Assembly: GCF_003018255.1 (NCBI RefSeq)
Contig: NZ_CP027440.1
Reading direction: 5' to 3' (one strand)
DNA length: 64,000 nt
DNA from: Escherichia coli
GTDB lineage: Bacteria; Pseudomonadota; Gammaproteobacteria; Enterobacterales; Enterobacteriaceae
How positions within the stretch are numbered: the stretch's first letter is position 1; every line of letters starts with the position of its first letter. The position numbers and the translations under genes were made by a program. The notes beneath the pieces are model-generated. The model did not search any database and was not told the origin of the DNA. It saw only the letters and a list, made by a program, of their open reading frames with translations. This document shows positions 1 through 53,067 of this stretch, piece after piece.

Positions 1-654
1 GCTAAAAAATCCTCCCTGTGCTTCCGGTATGTCAATTTCGACCGGTGCCTGCGTTTGCGGTGTTTCACGCACCCATTTTTGCACCAGCGTCGCAATCAGC
101 AACACCATCACCAGCCCCGCCACCAGACGAATCGCCGCAAAATCCCAGCCGAGGACGAACCCCATAAACACCAGCGTCGCCGGGTTTAACAACGGATTCC
201 CCATCCAGAATGCCAGCGCACCGCCCATCGACACCTGTTGGCGACGCATTCCCGCCGCGACCGGAGCCGCACAGCAGGTACACATCATGCCCGGCAGCGA
301 AAACAGCGTTCCCAGCAGCGTGCCGCGAAAGCGCGATTGCCCAAGCGTACGCAATAACCAGTCACGCGGGATCAGCACCTGAATCAACGACCCGAGCAGT
401 ACGCCCAGCACCGCCGCTTTCCATACCGCGAGGAAATAGATCATCGCGTAATCCAACGCCGCCTGCCACGGATTAGCATCCGCCTGCGCAAGGATAGATT
501 TACCGATACTGTGGGTTTCGGCAGCAGTAAACGCTTTGCCGTAGTAAGGTTGCCATTTCACATACCAGAGACCAGCAATGACAACGAGAAAGAAAAGCGC
601 GGGTTTCCACCACTGAATGGGCGTTGCCGCCTGAGATGAAGACTGACCAGTCAT
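1..654 (-). CDS. yraQ: Inner-membrane permease YraQ (partial; 3' end lies beyond window start)
   Basis: Own translation of minus strand from ATG at 654: MTGQSSSQAATPIQWWKPALFFLVVIAGLWYVKW..., hydrophobic, open to position 1 with no stop; absent from track because it has no stop in the window. Confidence 0.7.
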   Translation of the reverse strand, partial: MTGQSSSQAATPIQWWKPALFFLVVIAGLWYVKWQPYYGKAFTAAETHSIGKSILAQADANPWQAALDYAMIYFLAVWKAAVLGVLLGSLIQVLIPRDWLLRTLGQSRFRGTLLGTLFSLPGMMCTCCAAPVAAGMRRQQVSMGGALAFWMGNPLLNPATLVFMGFVLGWDFAAIRLVAGLVMVLLIATLVQKWVRETPQTQAPVEIDIPEAQGGFFS

Positions 655-726
655 AGCATTCCCCAGGAATAAGTTATGATAATTGAGCGCGTGAATATTA
701 CGCTCACTATCAATTCTTGGGAATAA

Positions 727-1476
<750 letters not shown>

Positions 1477-1477
1477 T

Positions 1478-1987
<510 letters not shown>

Positions 1988-2008
<21 letters not shown>

Positions 2009-2431
2009 GTTACGTAGCCAGATCATTTTTTTACCAAAGCCCAGCGTGTTGTCGGTGAATTTGATTTCATCAAGCCGGATTTCCCACACCGGGGCCGACA
2101 GCATTCTGGCAACCGGAAAGCGACGATTGTACGCCTGGCGCGCAAGGTCGCTTTCCTCACCTTCAAGCCTGCGGATCTCGCCTTTAAATTGCACGCCGCG
2201 AATTAACGCTACCGTTTTCGGCTGACCGTTTACCGTTCCGGCAACTGCCGCCTGCGGCCCACTCATCTGCGCGTGGCGCGTTTTTTCTTCCGTCAAAATG
2301 TAGAAGGCAACTTTCTGCGCATCAAAAAGATAAAAGGCATTAGCGCACCAGAGTTCCCCTTCCTGCTGCACACACCAGGTGACAACATGTTGTTTTGCCA
2401 GCCAACGGCTGATGGCGGTGAGTGTTTCCAT
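1988..2431 (-). CDS. yhbP: Pyridoxamine 5'-phosphate oxidase-like (FMN-binding) protein YhbP
   Basis: Track ORF, 147 aa, [19 protein letters not shown]...; convergent 21-nt overlap with yhbO. Confidence 0.9.
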
Positions 2432-2481
2432 TGCTGTTCTCTTTTATACTGTGGGCCTGACCTTAACATGCGACGCAGACG

Positions 2482-2784
2482 ATGACACCCTGGTTTCTTT
2501 ACTTGATCCGTACCGCCGACGATAAGCTTTATACCGGGATCACCACAGATGTCGAACGCCGCTATCAGCAGCACCAAAGCGGCAAAGGGGCGAAAGCACT
2601 GCGCGGGAAAGGAGAACTAACGCTGGCGTTTTCCGCGCCAGTGGGCGATCGTTCGCTGGCACTACGGGCGGAATATCGCGTTAAGCAACTGACCAAACGG
2701 CAAAAAGAGCGTCTGGTAGCGGAAGGCGCAGGGTTTGCAGAACTGTTGAGCAGCCTGCAAACCCCAAAGATTAAAAGCGATTGA
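2482..2784 (+). CDS. yhbQ: GIY-YIG domain nuclease-like protein YhbQ
   Basis: Track ORF, 100 aa, [27 protein letters not shown] (GIY-YIG motif YxG...R). Confidence 0.92.
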
Positions 2785-3274
2785 AGTGCTCGTGATACTC
2801 AACCAGACCAGTTACACCGTTCAGCGCGTCATCCGCTAAACGATGTACCTGGAAGGCACTTTCAGTGCCCGGCCAGCGGCAACGCAGATCGTGATGTGCC
2901 GCCAGTTCAAAGCCGAAACGGCTGTACAGCGCCGGATCGCCCAGCGTCACCACTGCGGCATAGCCGAACTCATTAAGCGAATCGAGTCCTTCATAGACCA
3001 GTTGGCGTGCCAGCCCCTGTCCACGGTATTTTTCATCTACCGCCAGCGGTGCCATGCCGACCCATTGCAGGTCTTCGCCCTGCACATCAACCGGACTAAA
3101 TGCCACATAGCCAATGACCTGACCTTCGTCATCTGTCGCCACCAGCCCCAGCGTCAGAAAGCCATCTTCACGCAGATCGTGAACCAGCTTCGCTTCCGCA
3201 TCACTTTCGAATGAACGACGCAGCAGGGCATCAATACCCGGCGCATCAATGGGAATTTCTACTCGAATTAGCAT
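2771..3274 (-). CDS. yhbS: GNAT family N-acetyltransferase YhbS
   Basis: Track ORF, 167 aa; acetyl-CoA binding motif QGLARQLV. Confidence 0.92.
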
Positions 3275-3792
3275 GGTTCACCTACCGATGTCTGTTTGGT
3301 TTCAGGCGCGGTTTTCATTCCCGCCTCAACAAAATCCGCCAGTTGCAGCAGCATCATGCGTAAGGCTTTCGGCATTTGCTCCAGTTCAATGGCGTCCATC
3401 AGGTTTTTCACATACAGCCCCAGCTCCGTATCGCCTTCAATTACCAGCCGACGCTGGAAGAAGAGCGTATCCGGATCTTGTTTACGCGCCGCAATCATCA
3501 GCAGATCGCTGGCGTCGGCACTAAAACTCACATCAGCTTGCGCGTTCTGGCTAACGACCAGTTTGCCATTCACCACCGAGGTAAACCATTGCAGGTCAAT
3601 ATCACGCACATGAATACTTAACCAGCGGCCTTCAAGAAACTCCAGCTCGCCATCATCCAACGCCTGGCGGAATTGCCAGCTTAAGACCTGCTCAAGAACC
3701 TGGCGTTTTAGCGCAAATGGCGTCAGTTTTACCGGTACACTCAACAGAGATGGCCCCAAATGCACAATACGGGAACGCAGTTTATCCAACAC
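3268..3792 (-). CDS. ubiT: SCP2 lipid-binding protein UbiT (YhbT), O2-independent ubiquinone biosynthesis accessory factor
   Basis: Track ORF 3268..3816 (TTG start); trimmed to GTG at 3792 preceded by AGGGAG Shine-Dalgarno, giving 174 aa; start choice uncertain. Confidence 0.85.
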   Translation of the reverse strand: MLDKLRSRIVHLGPSLLSVPVKLTPFALKRQVLEQVLSWQFRQALDDGELEFLEGRWLSIHVRDIDLQWFTSVVNGKLVVSQNAQADVSFSADASDLLMIAARKQDPDTLFFQRRLVIEGDTELGLYVKNLMDAIELEQMPKALRMMLLQLADFVEAGMKTAPETKQTSVGEPC

Positions 3793-4000
3793 GAGTTTTA
3801 CTCCCTGTTTCAACAATCATCCTATTTTGCCATATCAGAAAAATAACATAGCGGTATAAATCAACAATTCCATATGAAATTGCTGCTACCACCAATACAA
3901 CTTTAACTGCCTTAAATCAAAAATTGTCGCAGCAAGGTTAACTAAAATCCCAGTTCGTTAACATTTTTGCGCTTTGATAGCGCAACCTTCAGGAAAAATT

Positions 4001-4996
4001 ATGGAGCTGCTCTGCCCTGCCGGAAATCTCCCGGCGCTTAAGGCGGCCATCGAAAACGGCGCAGATGCTGTTTATATCGGGCTAAAAGATGATACCAATG
4101 CCCGTCACTTCGCCGGCCTTAACTTTACCGAGAAAAAATTGCAGGAAGCGGTGAGTTTTGTCCATCAACATCGCCGCAAACTTCACATCGCGATTAACAC
4201 TTTTGCGCATCCGGACGGTTACGCCCGCTGGCAGCGCGCCGTGGATATGGCGGCGCAGTTGGGTGCCGACGCGCTGATCCTCGCCGACCTCGCCATGCTG
4301 GAGTACGCCGCCGAGCGTTACCCGCATATTGAGCGTCATGTGTCAGTGCAGGCTTCGGCGACCAATGAAGAGGCGATTAACTTTTATCATCGCCATTTTG
4401 ACGTTGCCCGCGTGGTGCTGCCGCGCGTGTTGTCGATTCATCAGGTGAAACAACTGGCACGGGTCACACCTGTCCCGCTGGAAGTGTTTGCTTTCGGCAG
4501 CCTGTGCATTATGTCGGAAGGCCGTTGCTATCTGTCGTCGTATCTGACGGGTGAGTCGCCCAACACCGTGGGCGCGTGTTCTCCGGCCCGTTTCGTGCGC
4601 TGGCAGCAAACGCCGCAGGGACTGGAATCTCGCCTGAACGAAGTGCTGATCGACCGTTATCAGGATGGCGAAAACGCAGGTTATCCGACGCTGTGTAAAG
4701 GGCGTTATCTGGTGGACGGCGAGCGCTATCACGCGCTGGAAGAACCCACCAGTCTCAATACCCTGGAACTGCTGCCGGAGTTAATGGCGGCGAATATTGC
4801 TTCGGTGAAAATTGAAGGCCGCCAGCGTAGCCCGGCGTATGTCAGCCAGGTGGCGAAAGTCTGGCGTCAGGCTATCGACCGTTGTAAGGCCGATCCGCAA
4901 AACTTCGTACCGCAAAGCGCGTGGATGGAGACGCTCGGGTCGATGTCCGAAGGCACGCAAACTACCCTTGGCGCGTATCACCGTAAATGGCAGTGA
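4001..4996 (+). CDS. ubiU: Peptidase U32-family protein UbiU (YhbU), O2-independent ubiquinone hydroxylation
   Basis: Track ORF 3974..4996 trimmed to ATG 4001 (MELLCPAGNLPALKAA...) with AGGA RBS; clustered Cys (FGSLCIMSEGRCY). Confidence 0.93.
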   Translation: MELLCPAGNLPALKAAIENGADAVYIGLKDDTNARHFAGLNFTEKKLQEAVSFVHQHRRKLHIAINTFAHPDGYARWQRAVDMAAQLGADALILADLAMLEYAAERYPHIERHVSVQASATNEEAINFYHRHFDVARVVLPRVLSIHQVKQLARVTPVPLEVFAFGSLCIMSEGRCYLSSYLTGESPNTVGACSPARFVRWQQTPQGLESRLNEVLIDRYQDGENAGYPTLCKGRYLVDGERYHALEEPTSLNTLELLPELMAANIASVKIEGRQRSPAYVSQVAKVWRQAIDRCKADPQNFVPQSAWMETLGSMSEGTQTTLGAYHRKWQ

Positions 4997-5004
4997 GAAA
5001 AGCA

Positions 5005-5883
5005 ATGAAATATTCCTTAGGGCCGGTGCTATGGTACTGGCCAAAAGAGACGCTGGAAGACTTTTATCAGCAGGCCGCCGCCAGCAGCGCAGACGTGATT
5101 TATCTTGGTGAAGCGGTCTGTAGCAAACGCCGGGCAACCAAAGTTGGCGACTGGCTGGAGATGGCAAAATCGCTCGCCGGAAGTGGCAAGCAGATTGTGC
5201 TCTCCACGCTGGCGCTGGTGCAGGCGTCCTCCGAACTTGGCGAACTGAAACGTTATGTTGAGAACGGTGAGTTTCTGATTGAAGCCAGCGATCTCGGCGT
5301 GGTGAATATGTGCGCTGAACGCAAACTGCCGTTCGTCGCCGGGCACGCGCTGAACTGCTACAACGCGGTGACACTGAAAATATTGCTCAAACAGGGCATG
5401 ATGCGCTGGTGTATGCCGGTGGAGCTTTCCCGCGACTGGCTGGTGAATCTGCTTAATCAGTGCGATGAGCTGGGCATTCGCAACCAGTTTGAAGTGGAAG
5501 TCCTGAGCTACGGTCATCTGCCGCTGGCCTACTCCGCCCGCTGCTTTACCGCGCGTTCGGAAGACCGCCCGAAAGATGAGTGTGAAACCTGCTGCATTAA
5601 GTATCCGAACGGGCGCAACGTGCTATCGCAGGAAAACCAACAAGTGTTTGTACTCAATGGCATTCAGACCATGAGCGGCTACGTTTACAACCTCGGTAAC
5701 GAGCTGGCATCCATGCAGGGGCTGGTCGATGTGGTCCGCCTGTCACCGCAGGGTACTGACACTTTCGCGATACTCGACGCCTTCCGCGCCAATGAAAATG
5801 GCGCTGCACCACTGCCGTTGACGGCAAACAGCGATTGTAACGGCTACTGGCGGCGGCTGGCCGGGCTGGAGCTGCAAGCCTAA
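5005..5883 (+). CDS. ubiV: Peptidase U32-family protein UbiV (YhbV)
   Basis: Track ORF 4987..5883 trimmed to ATG 5005 (MKYSLGPVLWYWPKE...); C-terminal Cys cluster (CETCCIKYPNG). Confidence 0.93.
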   Translation: MKYSLGPVLWYWPKETLEDFYQQAAASSADVIYLGEAVCSKRRATKVGDWLEMAKSLAGSGKQIVLSTLALVQASSELGELKRYVENGEFLIEASDLGVVNMCAERKLPFVAGHALNCYNAVTLKILLKQGMMRWCMPVELSRDWLVNLLNQCDELGIRNQFEVEVLSYGHLPLAYSARCFTARSEDRPKDECETCCIKYPNGRNVLSQENQQVFVLNGIQTMSGYVYNLGNELASMQGLVDVVRLSPQGTDTFAILDAFRANENGAAPLPLTANSDCNGYWRRLAGLELQA

Positions 5884-5963
5884 GTAAATAGCTCACTTTG
5901 TTAACAACTTTAACTACTCTTTAATGCAGTATTAAAGATTAATCAGTAACAAAGTGAGCTGTT

Positions 5964-6971
5964 ATGACTGATAAAACCATTGCGTTTTCGCTACTCGATC
6001 TGGCCCCCATTCCCGAAGGCTCTTCAGCGCGGGAAGCGTTCTCCCACTCTCTCGACCTCGCCCGTCTGGCTGAAAAGCGCGGCTATCATCGCTACTGGCT
6101 GGCGGAACACCACAATATGACCGGCATTGCCAGTGCTGCAACATCAGTTTTGATTGGCTATCTGGCGGCGAATACCACTACGCTGCATCTGGGGTCTGGC
6201 GGCGTGATGTTGCCTAACCACTCACCATTGGTGATCGCCGAACAGTTCGGCACGCTTAATACGCTCTATCCGGGGCGAATCGATTTGGGGCTGGGTCGTG
6301 CGCCGGGTAGTGACCAGCGAACCATGATGGCACTACGTCGTCATATGAGCGGTGATATTGATAATTTCCCCCGCGATGTCGCGGAGCTGGTGGACTGGTT
6401 TGACGCCCGCGATCCCAATCCGCATGTGCGCCCGGTACCAGGCTATGGCGAGAAAATCCCCGTGTGGTTGTTAGGCTCCAGCCTTTACAGCGCGCAACTG
6501 GCGGCGCAGCTTGGTCTGCCGTTTGCGTTTGCCTCACACTTCGCGCCGGATATGTTGTTCCAGGCGCTGCATCTTTATCGCAGCAACTTCAAACCGTCGG
6601 CACGACTGGAAAAACCATACGCGATGGTGTGCATCAATATTATCGCTGCCGACAGCAACCGCGACGCTGAATTTCTGTTTACCTCAATGCAGCAAGCCTT
6701 TGTGAAACTACGCCGTGGCGAAACCGGACAACTACCGCCACCGATTCAAAATATGGATCAGTTCTGGTCACCGTCTGAGCAGTATGGCGTGCAGCAGGCG
6801 CTGAGTATGTCGTTGGTAGGTGATAAAGCGAAAGTGCGTCATGGCTTGCAGTCGATCCTGCGCGAAACCGACGCCGATGAGATTATGGTTAACGGGCAGA
6901 TTTTCGATCACCAGGCACGCCTGCATTCGTTTGAACTGGCGATGGATGTGAAGGAAGAGTTGTTGGGATAG
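5964..6971 (+). CDS. yhbW: Luciferase-like (flavin-dependent) monooxygenase YhbW
   Basis: Track ORF, 335 aa, [19 protein letters not shown]... Confidence 0.92.
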
Positions 6972-6984
6972 TATGTCTTAACGC

Positions 6985-7088
6985 GGGAAGCCTTATCCGA
7001 GCTGGCAACGCTGTCCTACGTAGACCTGATAAGCGAAGCGCATCAGGCATTGTGGAGGCAGCAGAAATGTCGGATAAGGCACCGCTGA
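6985..7088. repeat. REP/BIME cluster (about three REP-like palindromic units)
   Basis: Units resembling the REP consensus: gccttatccgagctggcaa, tagacctgataagcgaagcgcatcaggca, gcagaaatgtcggataaggcacc; fills the convergent yhbW/mtr gap. Confidence 0.6.
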
Positions 7089-13724: not shown

Positions 13725-13915
13725 CTGGTGTTAATACCCGATCTTCTGCGCATCCTCGCGACTAATGACAACCCTAACCCAGCTCTATGTGGGTAAAGCC
13801 TCTCATTAGCCGCGCGAACCTCTGCAGCGGAAGATCATTCATAGCAACAATACATTAGTTTCCAGTGAATTGCTGCCGTCAGCTTGAAAAAAGGGGCCAC
13901 TCAGGCCCCCTTTTC
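13725..13915 (+). ncRNA. sraG: Possible SraG (PsrO) sRNA antisense to the pnp leader
   Basis: Recalled location of SraG in the rpsO-pnp intergenic region on the opposite strand; plus-strand hairpin ggggccactcaggcccc + TTTT at 13893..13914 would give its 3' end; 5' end not determined. Confidence 0.3.
13886..13914. terminator. Bidirectional hairpin terminator (rpsO terminator)
   Basis: aaaaaaggggccactcaggcccccttttct: GC stem flanked by A-run and T-run. Confidence 0.75.
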
Positions 13916-13930
13916 TGAAACTCGCAAGAA

Positions 13931-14296
<366 letters not shown>

Positions 14297-15740: not shown

Positions 15741-15771
15741 TTAATTTCAGGTGGAAGGGCTGTTCACGTTG

Positions 15772-15845
15772 GCCTGATAAGACGCGCCAGCGTCGCATCA
15801 GGCAATCCATGCCGGATGCGGCGTAAACGCCTTATCCCGCATGGA
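15772..15845. repeat. REP/BIME element
   Basis: gcctgataagacgcgccagcgtcgcatcaggc and gccggatgcggcgtaaacgccttatcccgc match the REP consensus. Confidence 0.65.
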
Positions 15846-20522: not shown

Positions 20523-20545
20523 GCCCACCCCCAAGACATAAAAAA

Positions 20546-20608
20546 AGGGCCTAAAGCCCAGTTATTCTGTAGTCAGATAACAAAAAACCCCGATAAATCG
20601 GGGCTTTA
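20546..20608 (-). terminator. Two tandem hairpin/U-run structures between metY and rimP
   Basis: Minus strand gggctttaggccc + U-run and agccccgatttatcggggtttttt. Confidence 0.5.
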
Positions 20609-20728
20609 TATAACTGAACCCTATAACCGCAACTGCGGTCTGGAGCACTTTCCAGAAGGATTTTTTCAAATCCCACTACGAAGGCCGAAGTCTTCACAGT
20701 ATATTTGAAAAAGGACTCTAAGGGAAAG

Positions 20729-20805
<77 letters not shown>

Positions 20806-21137: not shown

Positions 21138-22496
<1,359 letters not shown>

Positions 22497-22503
22497 TTCG
22501 ACA

Positions 22504-24129
22504 TCAACCCTGCCCTTCAGGGGTGGGGTTACCTTGCTTATCCTCTGTAAACTCCTTTCTGAGCATCACATAATCGAAAACATCATGGTTTGCATCCACA
22601 ACCCGTGAGTCTCCTTTATAGTGTGCAATCACTTCCTCCAGCGTTTTCGGTTGTTCCGGCTTTGTTACCCCCATCCACGCATTAATCAGGTAATTATTGT
22701 AAGCTGTGGAAAAGATGTTGTTTTCCGTTGTGCGATCCACGCCATCCCCAAGAACGGGGCTATACCAGATAAACATCGGGACATGATATGCCTGCTGGCT
22801 GGCCTCCCTGCCTCCATGAAAATAGACGTTCTTCTTCGTAGGGTCACGTTCCAGGCCGTGGTCGGCAAAATACATGACCGAGGCGCGGCGATCTTTTAAT
22901 AATTCAAAAACCTGACCTAGCAAACTATCTGTGTAATGAATGGAGTTGTCATAGCAGGCATCCTGATCGTCCTGCGGTTGAAACACGGCGCTGGATTGCG
23001 GATAGGCGCTACAAGCCGGTTCATGGCTTCCATTTAAATGAAGAACAATCAGTTTCTTTTGCTGCGTATTTTGCTGTAATGCTTGCGATAAATGCGGCAA
23101 CAACAATTCATCAAATCCTCTGACATAAACTGTTTCCATGGCGCGCATGGCGATACTGGTAACTGCTGTACCATTCTGCCGAAAAGCGGATTGCGAGCTT
23201 AGCCAGAAAGTCTGAAATCCTGCTTGATTAGCCATATTAATAATGTTGTCCGGGTAATTATGAATGTCATGACTCAAAACGGAATCAGCAGTTAAAGAAA
23301 GGGGAACCGACAGCGCAGTGTAAGGTGCACCGCTTATTGCTTGATTAAACAGTTTGATCTGTTTTCTTTGTGCTTCGACTTGCGGTGTCGTAGAGCGTGT
23401 ATATCCATACAAAGACATATTGTCGACGCGTACAGACTCCCCCACAATCAACACGTAGGTATCAATACCTGTATCCCTGACTGATAATTGAAAATACGGC
23501 ACCGTGTTTGCAATTGAGAGTAATCTTTGATGCTCTTTCGCTGCTAAAGCAAAATAATTGAGATTGAAAAACGGTGTATAGGTAGCAAATCGCGACGCTA
23601 GTATATATGGACTGAACGCTTTTTTATTTTTTGCATCTTTATAAGCAAATTGACAAGCGGAAAATAAACTGCCCGAAATGACAATCAGCAATAATATTCC
23701 TGTCACTTTTTTCGTCGGCAAGGAAACATCATATTTTATTATTACTGCCAAAAAAAGAAGGGATAAAAAGGCAAAAGCACATAGATAAGGGATATACATC
23801 CCCAGCATTTTGACAACTTCATCCGGATCACTCTGCAGCACACTAATCGCAAATCCATCATTGAAAGTTGTACCAAAGGTACACCATGAATAGAGGCTAA
23901 TACTCATGTCTGCCGCTGTCAGTAACACAAATGGTGCGGCAACAAGCAGGCGAAGCGGAAGGGATGATATACGTTTAACAACCAGGATGGTCAGAACGAA
24001 GAACAGCAATCGCTGAACCATATGCGCTCCGGAAGAGGCGACTAAGTTCGTAATACCAAAAACAATAACACAAAGATACAACAACCAATGAGATTTAAAA
24101 CTTCTAACAAATTTGTTGAATACTGTCAT
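22504..24129 (-). CDS. yhbX: Sulfatase-family putative phosphoethanolamine transferase YhbX
   Basis: Track ORF 22504..24162 trimmed to ATG 24129 (MTVFNKFV...), 541 aa; N-terminal TM helices plus sulfatase domain; markedly AT-rich. Confidence 0.85.
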   Translation of the reverse strand: MTVFNKFVRSFKSHWLLYLCVIVFGITNLVASSGAHMVQRLLFFVLTILVVKRISSLPLRLLVAAPFVLLTAADMSISLYSWCTFGTTFNDGFAISVLQSDPDEVVKMLGMYIPYLCAFAFLSLLFLAVIIKYDVSLPTKKVTGILLLIVISGSLFSACQFAYKDAKNKKAFSPYILASRFATYTPFFNLNYFALAAKEHQRLLSIANTVPYFQLSVRDTGIDTYVLIVGESVRVDNMSLYGYTRSTTPQVEAQRKQIKLFNQAISGAPYTALSVPLSLTADSVLSHDIHNYPDNIINMANQAGFQTFWLSSQSAFRQNGTAVTSIAMRAMETVYVRGFDELLLPHLSQALQQNTQQKKLIVLHLNGSHEPACSAYPQSSAVFQPQDDQDACYDNSIHYTDSLLGQVFELLKDRRASVMYFADHGLERDPTKKNVYFHGGREASQQAYHVPMFIWYSPVLGDGVDRTTENNIFSTAYNNYLINAWMGVTKPEQPKTLEEVIAHYKGDSRVVDANHDVFDYVMLRKEFTEDKQGNPTPEGQG

Positions 24130-24585: not shown

Positions 24586-24672
24586 TGGTACCGAGGACGG
24601 GACTTGAACCCGTAAGCCCTATTGGGCACTACCACCTCAAGGTAGCGTGTCTACCAATTCCACCACCTCGGC
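24586..24672 (-). tRNA. leuU: tRNA-Leu (GAG)
   Basis: Reverse complement is GCCGAGGTGGTGGAATTGGTAGACACGCTACCTTGAGGTGGTAGTGCCCAATAGGGCTTACGGGTTCAAGTCCCGTCCTCGGTACCA: long variable arm, CCA end. Confidence 0.93.
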
Positions 24673-31321: not shown

Positions 31322-31358
31322 GCAAAAAAATACCGACCCGGGTACAAGTCCCAGGTCA
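31322..31358 (-). promoter_or_regulatory. graL: Leader terminator in greA 5' region (GraL-type attenuator)
   Basis: Minus strand: imperfect stem ACCUGGG/CCCGGGU followed by a U7 run, about 100 nt upstream of the greA ATG; coordinates approximate. Confidence 0.4.
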
Positions 31359-31476
31359 GCTACAATTCACATTTTGATAGTCATTTTACCCTGAAGTTCC
31401 CGAAGGGTCATCGTTTACTTTATAGGGCGTTGCGCCGTAGTATGACGGCTCGATTCCAGGTTGTTAGCGCGAGATT

Positions 31477-50821: not shown

Positions 50822-51454
50822 ATGATTCGCTTATCTGAACAAAGTCCCCTGGGCACCGGAAGACATCGGAAATGTTATGCGCATCCGGAAGATGCCCAAC
50901 GCTGTATCAAGATTGTCTACCATCGTGGCGATGGTGGCGATAAAGAGATCCGCCGTGAGTTAAAGTACTACGCGCATCTTGGTCGCCGGTTAAAAGACTG
51001 GAGTGGAATACCGCGCTATCACGGTACCGTTGAGACGGATTGCGGAACCGGTTATGTCTACGATGTGATTGCAGATTTTGACGGCAAACCCTCCATTACG
51101 CTGACCGAATTTGCTGAACAATGCCGTTACGAAGAAGACATTGCACAACTGCGCCAGCTACTGAAACAGCTGAAGCGTTATTTGCAGGATAACCGTATCG
51201 TGACGATGTCGCTGAAGCCGCAGAATATCCTCTGTCACCGCATCAGTGAGTCAGAGGTTATCCCCGTCGTCTGCGACAACATTGGTGAAAGCACATTGAT
51301 TCCACTGGCGACCTGGTCGAAGTGGTGTTGTCTGCGTAAGCAAGAGCGGTTATGGAAACGATTTATCGCCCAACCGGCGCTGGCTATTGCCCTGCAGAAA
51401 GATCTGCAACCTCGTGAGAGCAAAACGCTGGCCCTCACTTCGCGCGAAGCTTAA
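50822..51454 (+). CDS. yrbL: Uncharacterised protein YrbL
   Basis: Track ORF, 210 aa, [32 protein letters not shown]... Confidence 0.9.
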
Positions 51455-52179
51455 TCCAGCTGGTGCTGTTGCATAAACGACTCACCGCCTAACTGATACA
51501 TCTGCCGTAAAATCCACGCCTGACGGCTACGCACGTAGCCCGATGGCGCGGAGACTTTGAAACGAAGTGGATTAGGTAATACAGCAGCCAGTAATGCAGC
51601 TTCCGAGCGGGTAAGTTTGCTCGCGGGTTTGTGGAAATAACGTTGTGCCGCAGCTTCGACGCCAAACACACCGTCGCCAAATTCGGCGATATTCAGGTAA
51701 ACCGTCAGGATACGCTTTTTGCTCCAGACAGTTTCTATCCCCAGCGTTAATCCAGCTTCCAGCCCTTTTCGAACCCAGCTACGCCCATCCCATAAAAAGA
51801 GATTTTTGGCTGTCTGCTGAGAAATCGTTGACGCACCGCGAATACGGTTTTCATTGCGCTCGTTGTGGGCCAGGGCTTGCTCAATGGAGGCGACATCAAA
51901 GCCCCAGTGCTCAGGAAACTTCTGATCTTCTGCGGCAATCACCGCCAGTCCCATCCACGGCGAAATTTGATCCATACTGACCCAGTCAGAATGTGCCACG
52001 TAACGAAAATTGCCATGCAGCCAGGCGCTGACTTGTCGCTCGGCCATTACCGCTGAGAAAGGAACAGGCGCAACGCTAAACAACGCGATGCCCCCGCCCC
52101 AGAAAACGGCGAGGACAACCATTAACCGCAGAAGAAAACGGCGAACGAAACTAAACACCGTTAAGCGGCTTTTACTCAT
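51451..52179 (-). CDS. mtgA: Monofunctional peptidoglycan glycosyltransferase MtgA
   Basis: Track ORF, 242 aa; GT51 motifs ([16 protein letters not shown]). Confidence 0.96.
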
Positions 52180-52946: not shown

Positions 52947-53067
52947 GTGCGGCCTGAAAAACAGTGCTGTGCCCTTGTAACTCATCATAATAATTTACGG
53001 CGCAGCCAAGATTTCCCTGGTGTTGGCGCAGTATTCGCGCACCCCGGTCTAGCCGGGGTCATTTTTT
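52947..53067 (+). ncRNA. arcZ: ArcZ (SraH/RyhA) sRNA
   Basis: Sequence matches recalled ArcZ: gtgcggcctgaaaaacagtgctgtgccc...acggcgcagccaagatttccctggtgttggcgcagtattcgcgcaccccggtctagccggggtcatttttt; terminator hairpin plus T6 overlaps the arcB stop on the opposite strand; 5' end approximate. Confidence 0.75.

Follow-up and report, generated by a model that had tools for sequence, protein, structure and literature searches.

Gene content and layout

The window analysed here is a stretch of 64,000 nucleotides of Escherichia coli chromosomal DNA. Positions 1400–3900 match, at 95–99% identity, 5,424 of the 5,426 complete genomes of this species, the best match being 99.2% identical. Gene models were drawn from the open reading frames (ORFs) of the window and from the annotation that RefSeq gives for this best-matching genome, with the two sources in agreement, and place the following genes and spacer in this region:

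1490–2008, + strand: yhbO, 172 aa, DJ-1/PfpI-family protein/nucleic acid deglycase (ORF and RefSeq CDS; Pfam PF01965, E = 1.4e-56, residues 3–168; TIGR01382)
1988–2431, − strand: yhbP, 147 aa, YhbP family (UPF0306) (ORF and RefSeq CDS; NCBIfam NF002900, E = 3e-80)
2432–2481: divergent yhbP/yhbQ spacer, 50 bp between the two start codons (sequence)
2482–2784, + strand: yhbQ, 100 aa, GIY-YIG domain protein (ORF and RefSeq; Pfam PF01541, E = 2.3e-15, residues 4–76)
2771–3274, − strand: yhbS (= hqbA), 167 aa, GNAT acetyltransferase (ORF, RefSeq and Pfam GNAT families)
3268–3792, − strand: ubiT (yhbT), 174 aa, GTG start, SCP2-domain protein (RefSeq; Pfam PF02036; NCBIfam NF047962)

The original prediction described five genes on alternating strands, which is true of four of them; ubiT lies on the − strand like yhbS, giving the order → ← → ← ← (yhbO, yhbP, yhbQ, yhbS, ubiT), with ubiU next after ubiT in divergent orientation. 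With yhbO, yhbP, and yhbQ assumed to be single-gene units, the cluster is taken to comprise four transcription units, the fourth being the ubiT-yhbS operon. A promoter scan returned no consensus sigma-70 match in the 50-bp spacer between yhbP and yhbQ, and an Rfam scan of the whole window gave no match in positions 1–7000, with known elements alone recovered elsewhere.

YhbS is now known as HqbA, an Hfq-binding acetyltransferase (PMC10710024), and UbiT is an accessory factor of O2-independent ubiquinone synthesis (PMC10470549). The statement that no substrate is assigned to YhbQ is out of date, with RefSeq naming the protein “DNA damage response exodeoxyribonuclease YhbQ”, although this is a name and not a verified activity, and a literature search found no primary paper behind it. 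The relatives of YhbQ in the PDB are 1zg2 and 1ywl, both UPF0213 structural-genomics entries, and a PDB search by sequence returned no solved relative of YhbP.

The genes are joined by three coding overlaps:

1988–2008: convergent yhbO/yhbP coding overlap, 21 nt, in exact antisense codon register (sequence, 54 genomes)
2771–2784: convergent yhbQ/yhbS coding overlap, 14 nt (sequence)
3268–3274, − strand: same-strand ubiT/yhbS overlap, 7 nt, ATGCTAA, holding the yhbS ATG and the ubiT TAA (sequence)

Both the ORFs and the RefSeq annotation reproduce exactly the 21-nt and 14-nt convergent overlaps that had been predicted. The third overlap, which had been listed as convergent too, has the predicted length of 7 nt, but both of its genes lie on the − strand. 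Conservation was followed by means of a YhbP scan with one genome taken per species, which yielded 80 Enterobacteriaceae loci of 75–99% YhbP identity, the convergent overlaps being measured from stop to stop with start-codon calls playing no part. The conservation proposed as a check on these overlaps is borne out, with their lengths kept across the Enterobacteriaceae in these 80 loci.

That the overlaps are annotation artefacts created by wrong gene boundaries is vanishingly improbable, and is ruled out by the stop codons, with unambiguous in-frame stops alone setting the convergent overlaps. As these depend on stop codons alone, no correction of a start codon can remove them, and trimming of the gene models, which had been suggested as a way of refuting the overlaps, leaves them intact at their in-frame stops. 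Identical stops are found in over 50 genomes, the yhbS ATG is kept within ATGCTAA in 71 of 71 loci, and both partners of each pair give strong family matches. yhbO, yhbP, yhbQ, and yhbS are genuine coding genes, with Pfam or NCBIfam matches and orthologues that are 70–100% identical across genera.

The ubiT-yhbS operon overlap

ubiT and yhbS form an operon pair of the stop/start kind, being encoded on one strand, co-transcribed, and overlapping by the stop codon of one and the start codon of the other. Co-transcription was demonstrated by RT-PCR, with yhbS as the second gene (PMC10470549), and the operon is induced by Fnr (PMC10470549; PMC10710024), with ubiT shown to be induced ~35-fold anaerobically (PMC10710024). 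The overlap measures 7 nt in all 71 evaluable loci, and also in an outgroup genome (L088) to which we return below. It is a normal operon stop/start overlap, and probably couples the translation of the two genes.

Antisense codons specify the stops at both convergent junctions

At the yhbO/yhbP junction each gene spells the stop codon of the other, the TTA codon of yhbO Leu167 giving the yhbP stop TAA in antisense, and a TCA (Ser) codon of yhbP giving the yhbO stop TGA. The same relation holds throughout the 54-genome set of junctions, where the yhbP stop, TAA or TAG, lies opposite a TTA or CTA Leu codon of yhbO in reverse complement. The overlap is 21 nt long in 40 loci and 15 nt in 14, with one locus each at 39 nt and 238 nt, the latter a single locus in which yhbO is frameshifted.

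These lengths follow the position of the Leu codon that supplies the stop. In all 54 genomes that have an intact yhbO, one and only one of the residues Leu167 and Leu169 is encoded by TTA or CTA (Leu167 in 40 and Leu169 in 14), the combined share of TTA and CTA at ten other conserved yhbO Leu sites being 12%. The two codons are freely interchanged at Leu167, with 20 genomes for each, and CTG or TTG is seen at this position only where Leu169 gives the yhbP stop. This pattern points to purifying selection that preserves the yhbP stop by way of the synonymous Leu167/169 site of yhbO, and so keeps YhbP from being extended.

The C-terminus of YhbO is conserved, ending in ...ALRLLGA. In Klebsiella pneumoniae the TGA of yhbO has been lost and the gene runs six codons further, encoding a protein of 178 aa and producing the 39-nt overlap, and this locus is a live example of the origin of convergent overlaps by a shift of the stop codon.

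At the yhbQ/yhbS junction the T-C-A that gives the yhbQ stop TGA in antisense straddles two YhbS codons, the end of TTC (Phe) and the A that opens AAT (Asn). An overlap of 14 nt is seen in 70 loci, and one of 4 nt in three others. Comparison of the yhbQ stop with the YhbS Phe codon in 72 loci shows that the stop follows the Phe codon, with TGA accompanying TTC in 46 loci and TAA accompanying TTT in 23. The codon after Phe specifies Asn, Lys, or Ser and always begins with A, and the resulting T-Y-A therefore gives a yhbQ stop with either Phe codon. The YhbS C-terminus (...HFNRF) is nearly invariant, and as a result the 14-nt overlap is hard-wired. The YhbQ tail is highly variable before its last four residues and lies outside the GIY-YIG domain (residues 4–76 of 100), and from these alignments it appears to be dispensable.

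Loci that lack yhbO and the age of the arrangement

An intact yhbO beside yhbP is missing in about 24 of the 80 loci. Sixteen of these carry yraR after yhbP on the same strand, and comprise E. albertii, E. whittamii, the yhbO-less Citrobacter loci, Trabulsiella, and one metagenome-assembled genome; the yhbP-yraR spacer is 3–42 bp in 15 of the 16 and about 200 bp in the remaining one (L040). Kluyvera-type loci have neither yhbO nor yraR beside yhbP. In both the yraR-flanked and the Kluyvera-type loci YhbP is 140–146 aa long, mostly 140–142, and ends in ...WLR(D/DL). Distant YhbP relatives of 35–50% identity align as far as about residue 140–142 of E. coli YhbP and no further; these outgroups come from a search of representatives. 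The YhbP tail after ...WLR thus appears to be dispensable.

The yhbO-less junction is alike in sequence between Escherichia and Citrobacter, which suggests a single old allele and not the outcome of repeated deletions. One outgroup contig likewise has the order GIY-YIG ← → yhbP → yraR-like gene, without yhbO. In the more distant genome L088, yhbP overlaps another convergent neighbour, nrdG, by 20 nt, and yhbS/yhbQ overlap by 22 nt, with the ubiT/yhbS overlap again 7 nt. Tight tail-to-tail packing around these genes is therefore old, with interchangeable partners.

Frequency of convergent overlaps

Packing of the same kind had been predicted elsewhere in the window at two further junctions, and both agree with the gene coordinates:

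21153–22496, + strand: argG, convergent with yhbX (− strand, stop end at 22504) across a 7-bp gap
50822–51454, + strand, and 51451–52179, − strand: yrbL and mtgA, with a convergent overlap of 4 nt

Of the 10 convergent junctions in the 65-kb region, three overlap (by 21, 14, and 4 nt) and the rest are separated by 7 to 155 bp. A sample of 150 kb from other parts of the same genome holds 19 convergent junctions, none of which overlaps, the smallest gap being 6 bp, and the comparison of 3/10 with 0/19 is a post hoc one. Together these make 29 convergent junctions in 215 kb, about 13 per 100 kb, which by extrapolation would correspond to ~600–650 genome-wide, about 12% of them overlapping, with 75 convergent overlapping gene pairs reported for E. 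coli (Huvet & Stumpf 2014, PMC4161906). At a rate of 12%, three overlaps among 10 convergent junctions have a probability of about 0.11, and the enrichment of overlaps in the window is not significant against this literature-based rate. The window is somewhat, and not remarkably, rich in tight tail-to-tail pairs, and not clearly more so than expected by chance.

A hairpin at the yhbQ/yhbS boundary and candidate terminators

Three potential hairpins lie in or near the convergent junctions:

2730–2765: palindromic stem-loop (GGGGTTTGCAG...CTGCAAACCC), beginning 6 nt past the yhbS stop on its 3′ side, within the codons of the YhbQ tail
1934–1950, − strand: hairpin of 7 bp with AUCUUUAUUG after it, within yhbO codons 148–154 and 38 nt beyond the yhbP stop
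2268–2290, + strand: short GC hairpin with a T6 run, inside yhbP (antisense of the EEKT codons), ~260 nt past the yhbO stop

The latter two are weak candidate terminators for yhbP and yhbO, respectively, and conserved peptides account for both. The 1934–1950 hairpin is 97% paired in 54 genomes with almost no two-sided changes, and this conservation is uninformative, since the YhbO peptide QLVTSR that it encodes is itself conserved. Folds at 1985–2040 and 2255–2295 have z-scores of about 0 and are no better than those of shuffled sequences, and a terminator scan returned 7 sites, all of them weak and not above the 4.3 ± 2.0 found in shuffles. With neither the scan nor the junction folds rising above shuffles, canonical intrinsic terminators at the junctions were rejected.

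The 2730–2765 hairpin is the strongest of the structural signals, with the 146-nt segment at 2630–2775 on the − strand folding at −57.2 kcal/mol (z = −4.2). Directly after it come GCGCCUUCC on the − strand and AAAGAUUAAAAG on the + strand, and the lack of a U-tract on either strand rules the hairpin out as an intrinsic (Rho-independent) terminator. Among 43 sequences, from genomes with a YhbQ of 99–100 aa, the outer eight pairs of the stem are 79% paired, compared with 29–52% in slid registers, and one pair swaps between GC (20 sequences) and CG (13 sequences) through amino-acid changes in YhbQ. RNAalifold yielded no consensus structure for this yhbS-proximal hairpin, which has decayed or been replaced in four genera (Kosakonia, Klebsiella, Enterobacter, and Kluyvera).

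Convergent E. coli genes are known to be served by another class of terminator, in which a hairpin pauses converging polymerases independently of Rho and without a U-tract (Ju et al. 2019; Wang et al. 2022; 10.1101/2022.10.23.513370), and hundreds of convergent genes have been described as having collision-type bidirectional terminators of this sort (10.1101/2022.10.23.513370). It is possible, if tentative, that the 2730–2765 hairpin acts in this manner for yhbQ and ubiT-hqbA, or that it serves as a 3′ stem-loop protecting the hqbA mRNA from exonucleases. Such a function would account for a strong stem placed at a gene boundary, and for its retention of pairing, with a swapped GC/CG pair, across the 43 genomes; members of the published class likewise lack the features of intrinsic terminators (10.1101/2022.10.23.513370). 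The swap, however, may represent a single phylogenetic event, and both the lack of an RNAalifold consensus and the loss or replacement of the hairpin in the four genera named above speak against either role. Furthermore, the hairpin is part of the yhbQ reading frame, and in the yhbQ mRNA translating ribosomes would be expected to unwind the stem.

Overlapping transcripts and a possible regulatory role

The coding overlaps make full-length yhbO and yhbP mRNAs complementary at their 3′ ends, and likewise those of yhbQ and yhbS. The antisense 3′ overlap of transcripts that had been predicted for the cluster is consequently upheld for yhbO/yhbP and yhbQ/yhbS, both from the coding overlap and from published RNA-seq, but does not apply to the co-directional yhbS/ubiT pair. 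Strand-specific RNA-seq had been proposed as the check, and the 3′ overlap has already been published for MG1655 (PMC12288877). In the ExcludonFinder study of Sanmartin et al. (NAR 2025), in which 58 MG1655 transcriptomes were analysed (PMC12288877), yhbO/yhbP, yhbQ/yhbS, yrbL/mtgA, and argG/yhbX are all listed in Table 1, as found in at least 50% of the transcriptomes (PMC12288877).

This listing raises the question of whether the overlaps are functional excludons, in which polymerase collision or RNase III cleavage of the 3′ duplex lowers expression of the partner gene. On this account yhbO and yhbP would be mutually exclusive, as would yhbQ and ubiT-hqbA, with Fnr-driven expression of ubiT-hqbA silencing yhbQ, for example. 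Both pairs belong to the MG1655 “excludome”, in which most E. coli convergent excludons have their predicted terminators inside the partner transcript, and synteny is higher for excludon pairs than for other neighbouring genes (PMC12288877). In addition, the ~35-fold anaerobic induction of ubiT would make antisense pressure on yhbQ condition-dependent (PMC10710024). Inclusion in the ExcludonFinder list, however, requires nothing beyond overlapping coverage. The overlaps are conserved, as a regulatory role would predict, but conservation of their length is fully explained by constraint on the partner at the protein level, and the lack of yhbO in many lineages, which have yraR in tandem after yhbP, shows that the yhbO/yhbP pairing is not obligatory. 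We therefore consider functional excludons an unlikely explanation of these overlaps.

Convergent overlaps as probable by-products of compaction

The convergent overlaps are probably by-products of genome compaction, with their lengths frozen by the coding constraint of the neighbouring gene. The cluster would comprise four transcription units of an ordinary kind, closely packed without surplus DNA, each convergent pair bringing together one conserved C-terminus (YhbO or YhbS) and one dispensable tail (YhbP or YhbQ). The reading frame of the tail would enter the neighbouring gene and continue until a stop is spelled in antisense by the codons of that neighbour, these being TTA/CTA at yhbO Leu167/Leu169 for yhbP, and the T-Y-A of the YhbS Phe-Asn codons for yhbQ. 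Stops that are spelled by the neighbour in this way would keep overlap lengths fixed across genera without any selection for the overlap itself. Movement of stop codons is the accepted origin of convergent overlaps (PMC4161906). We infer that the 3′ complementarity of the mRNAs is tolerated, and is not a dedicated switch.

Several observations count against the overlaps being by-products. The pairs appear in the list of excludons, which have higher synteny and are proposed to be regulatory (PMC12288877), and the overlaps of the distant genome L088 (22 nt for yhbQ/yhbS and 20 nt for yhbP/nrdG) could hint at more than accident. The stable, partly covarying hairpin at the yhbQ/yhbS boundary is left unexplained by compaction; a role for it in termination or mRNA stability would nonetheless be compatible with overlaps that arose as by-products, the two not being exclusive.

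The yhbQ/ubiT-hqbA overlap and its hairpin could also form a working switch, with the hairpin positioning the collisions and a parallel link between YhbO and YhbP, although we think this quite improbable. Fnr-driven anaerobic transcription of ubiT-hqbA would then collide or pair with yhbQ transcripts, setting expression of a DNA-damage nuclease inversely to that of anaerobic quinone synthesis and of the Hfq regulator HqbA, and the stress deglycase YhbO, whose promoter is RpoS-dependent, would be tied to YhbP likewise.

The importance of these overlaps is small, the gain being a worked example of how convergent overlaps keep a fixed length. The yhbO Leu167/169 pair is a synonymous site visibly constrained by a stop codon on the opposite strand, and breaks the assumption that synonymous means neutral. 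Caution is also warranted in recoding or refactoring, with deletion or C-terminal tagging of yhbO, yhbS, or yhbQ necessarily changing the partner gene.

Comparison with known systems

The genes with their overlaps and the overlapping transcription were already known, from RefSeq and from the published genome-wide map, respectively, and each element of the cluster can be set beside an established class. The ubiT/yhbS overlap resembles the stop/start overlaps of translationally coupled operons (PMC10666635), being on the same strand, co-transcribed, formed by interleaved ATG and TAA codons, and kept in all genomes examined, although at 7 nt it differs from the commonest lengths in coupled operons of 4 or 1 nt (PMC10666635). 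The 2730–2765 element shares with collision-type terminators a hairpin at a convergent boundary and the lack of a canonical U-tract, but lies within the yhbQ coding sequence and is only partly conserved. The convergent excludons of MG1655 (PMC12288877) are listed on the strength of overlapping RNA-seq coverage, and a regulatory effect is a proposal for the class.

The yhbO/yhbP and yhbQ/yhbS pairs belong to the class of convergent overlapping genes, with opposite strands, facing 3′ ends, and shared nucleotides, and recur in 54 and 73 other genomes respectively. Like the known pairs of this class (PMC4161906), they lie on opposite strands with overlaps, here of 14–21 nt, that are set by stop codons and lengthen when a stop is lost. 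They differ from those pairs (PMC4161906) in nothing essential, and what is added here is the identity of the codons that spell the stops, together with the constraint that this places on the Leu codons of yhbO.

Variation at the yhbO end of the cluster

Among the Enterobacteriaceae, yhbO is polymorphic for presence or absence between genomes (1363-2008 in the window; ~4380-4500 in loci L006, L008, L013, and L069 of the compared genomes). In E. albertii, E. whittamii, many Citrobacter, and Trabulsiella, the gene immediately after yhbP is yraR, in the same orientation and with a spacing of 3-42 bp, and yhbO is likewise absent from Kluyvera, with no yraR found in the Kluyvera loci. The ~580 bp absent from yhbO-less loci correspond to yhbO and its upstream region, with YhbP 140-142 aa in length in most of these genomes. 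The junction sequence is alike between genera, which suggests that the yhbO-less arrangement is an old allele.

Altered forms of yhbO are also observed. The TGA stop codon of yhbO is lost in K. pneumoniae ATCC 13883 (L075, 4406-4444), adding six codons (...LLGAGITPPV*) and thereby extending the overlap between yhbO and yhbP from 21 to 39 nt. In Escherichia sp. MOD1-EC7003 (L004, 4445-5330), ~800 bp of REP/BIME-like repeats beside dolP take the place of yhbO, yraR, and yraQ, with a 3' remnant the only part of yhbO left, and yhbP retaining the E. coli-type tail and stop. An apparent frameshift giving a 242-codon reading of yhbO in an E. coli draft assembly (L002, 4207-4935) is due either to an error in the assembly or to yhbO being a pseudogene there.

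The yhbP/yhbQ spacer and the yhbQ/yhbS boundary

The start codons of the divergent genes yhbP and yhbQ are separated by only 50 bp (window 2432-2481). Their promoters must overlap mutually or fall within the coding sequence of the neighbouring gene; no consensus sigma-70 match was found in 2432-2481. At the yhbQ/yhbS boundary, a stable palindromic stem-loop (window 2730-2765) lies 6 nt past the stop codon of yhbS (hqbA), on its 3' side, within the variable tail codons of YhbQ. Its conservation is partial, with one pair swapped GC/CG, and it carries no U-tract. This stem-loop may be a collision-type terminator element, or may stabilise the 3' end of the hqbA mRNA.

Other features of the window

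The known RNA elements of the window are as follows:

13743-13914, SraG
14144-14258, S15 leader
15771-15841, naRNA4
20540-20640, rimP leader
20732-20805, tRNA
24589-24672, tRNA
31325-31446, greA leader
52947-53054, ArcZ

Their presence is as expected for this region of E. coli. Same-strand overlaps of 4 nt each occur at elbB/mtgA (window 52176-52179), npr/rapZ, and lptC/kdsC, with a 32-nt same-strand overlap at lptA/lptC, all of which are ordinary operon packing.

Comparison with a more distant relative

The outgroup locus L088 (GCA_052779805.1, 1051-3904) retains ubiU divergent from ubiT-yhbS and the 7-nt ubiT/yhbS overlap, with a convergent yhbS/yhbQ overlap of 22 nt. A BhsA/YdgH-like gene lies between yhbQ and yhbP, and the partner of yhbP is nrdG, not yhbO, with an overlap of 20 nt.
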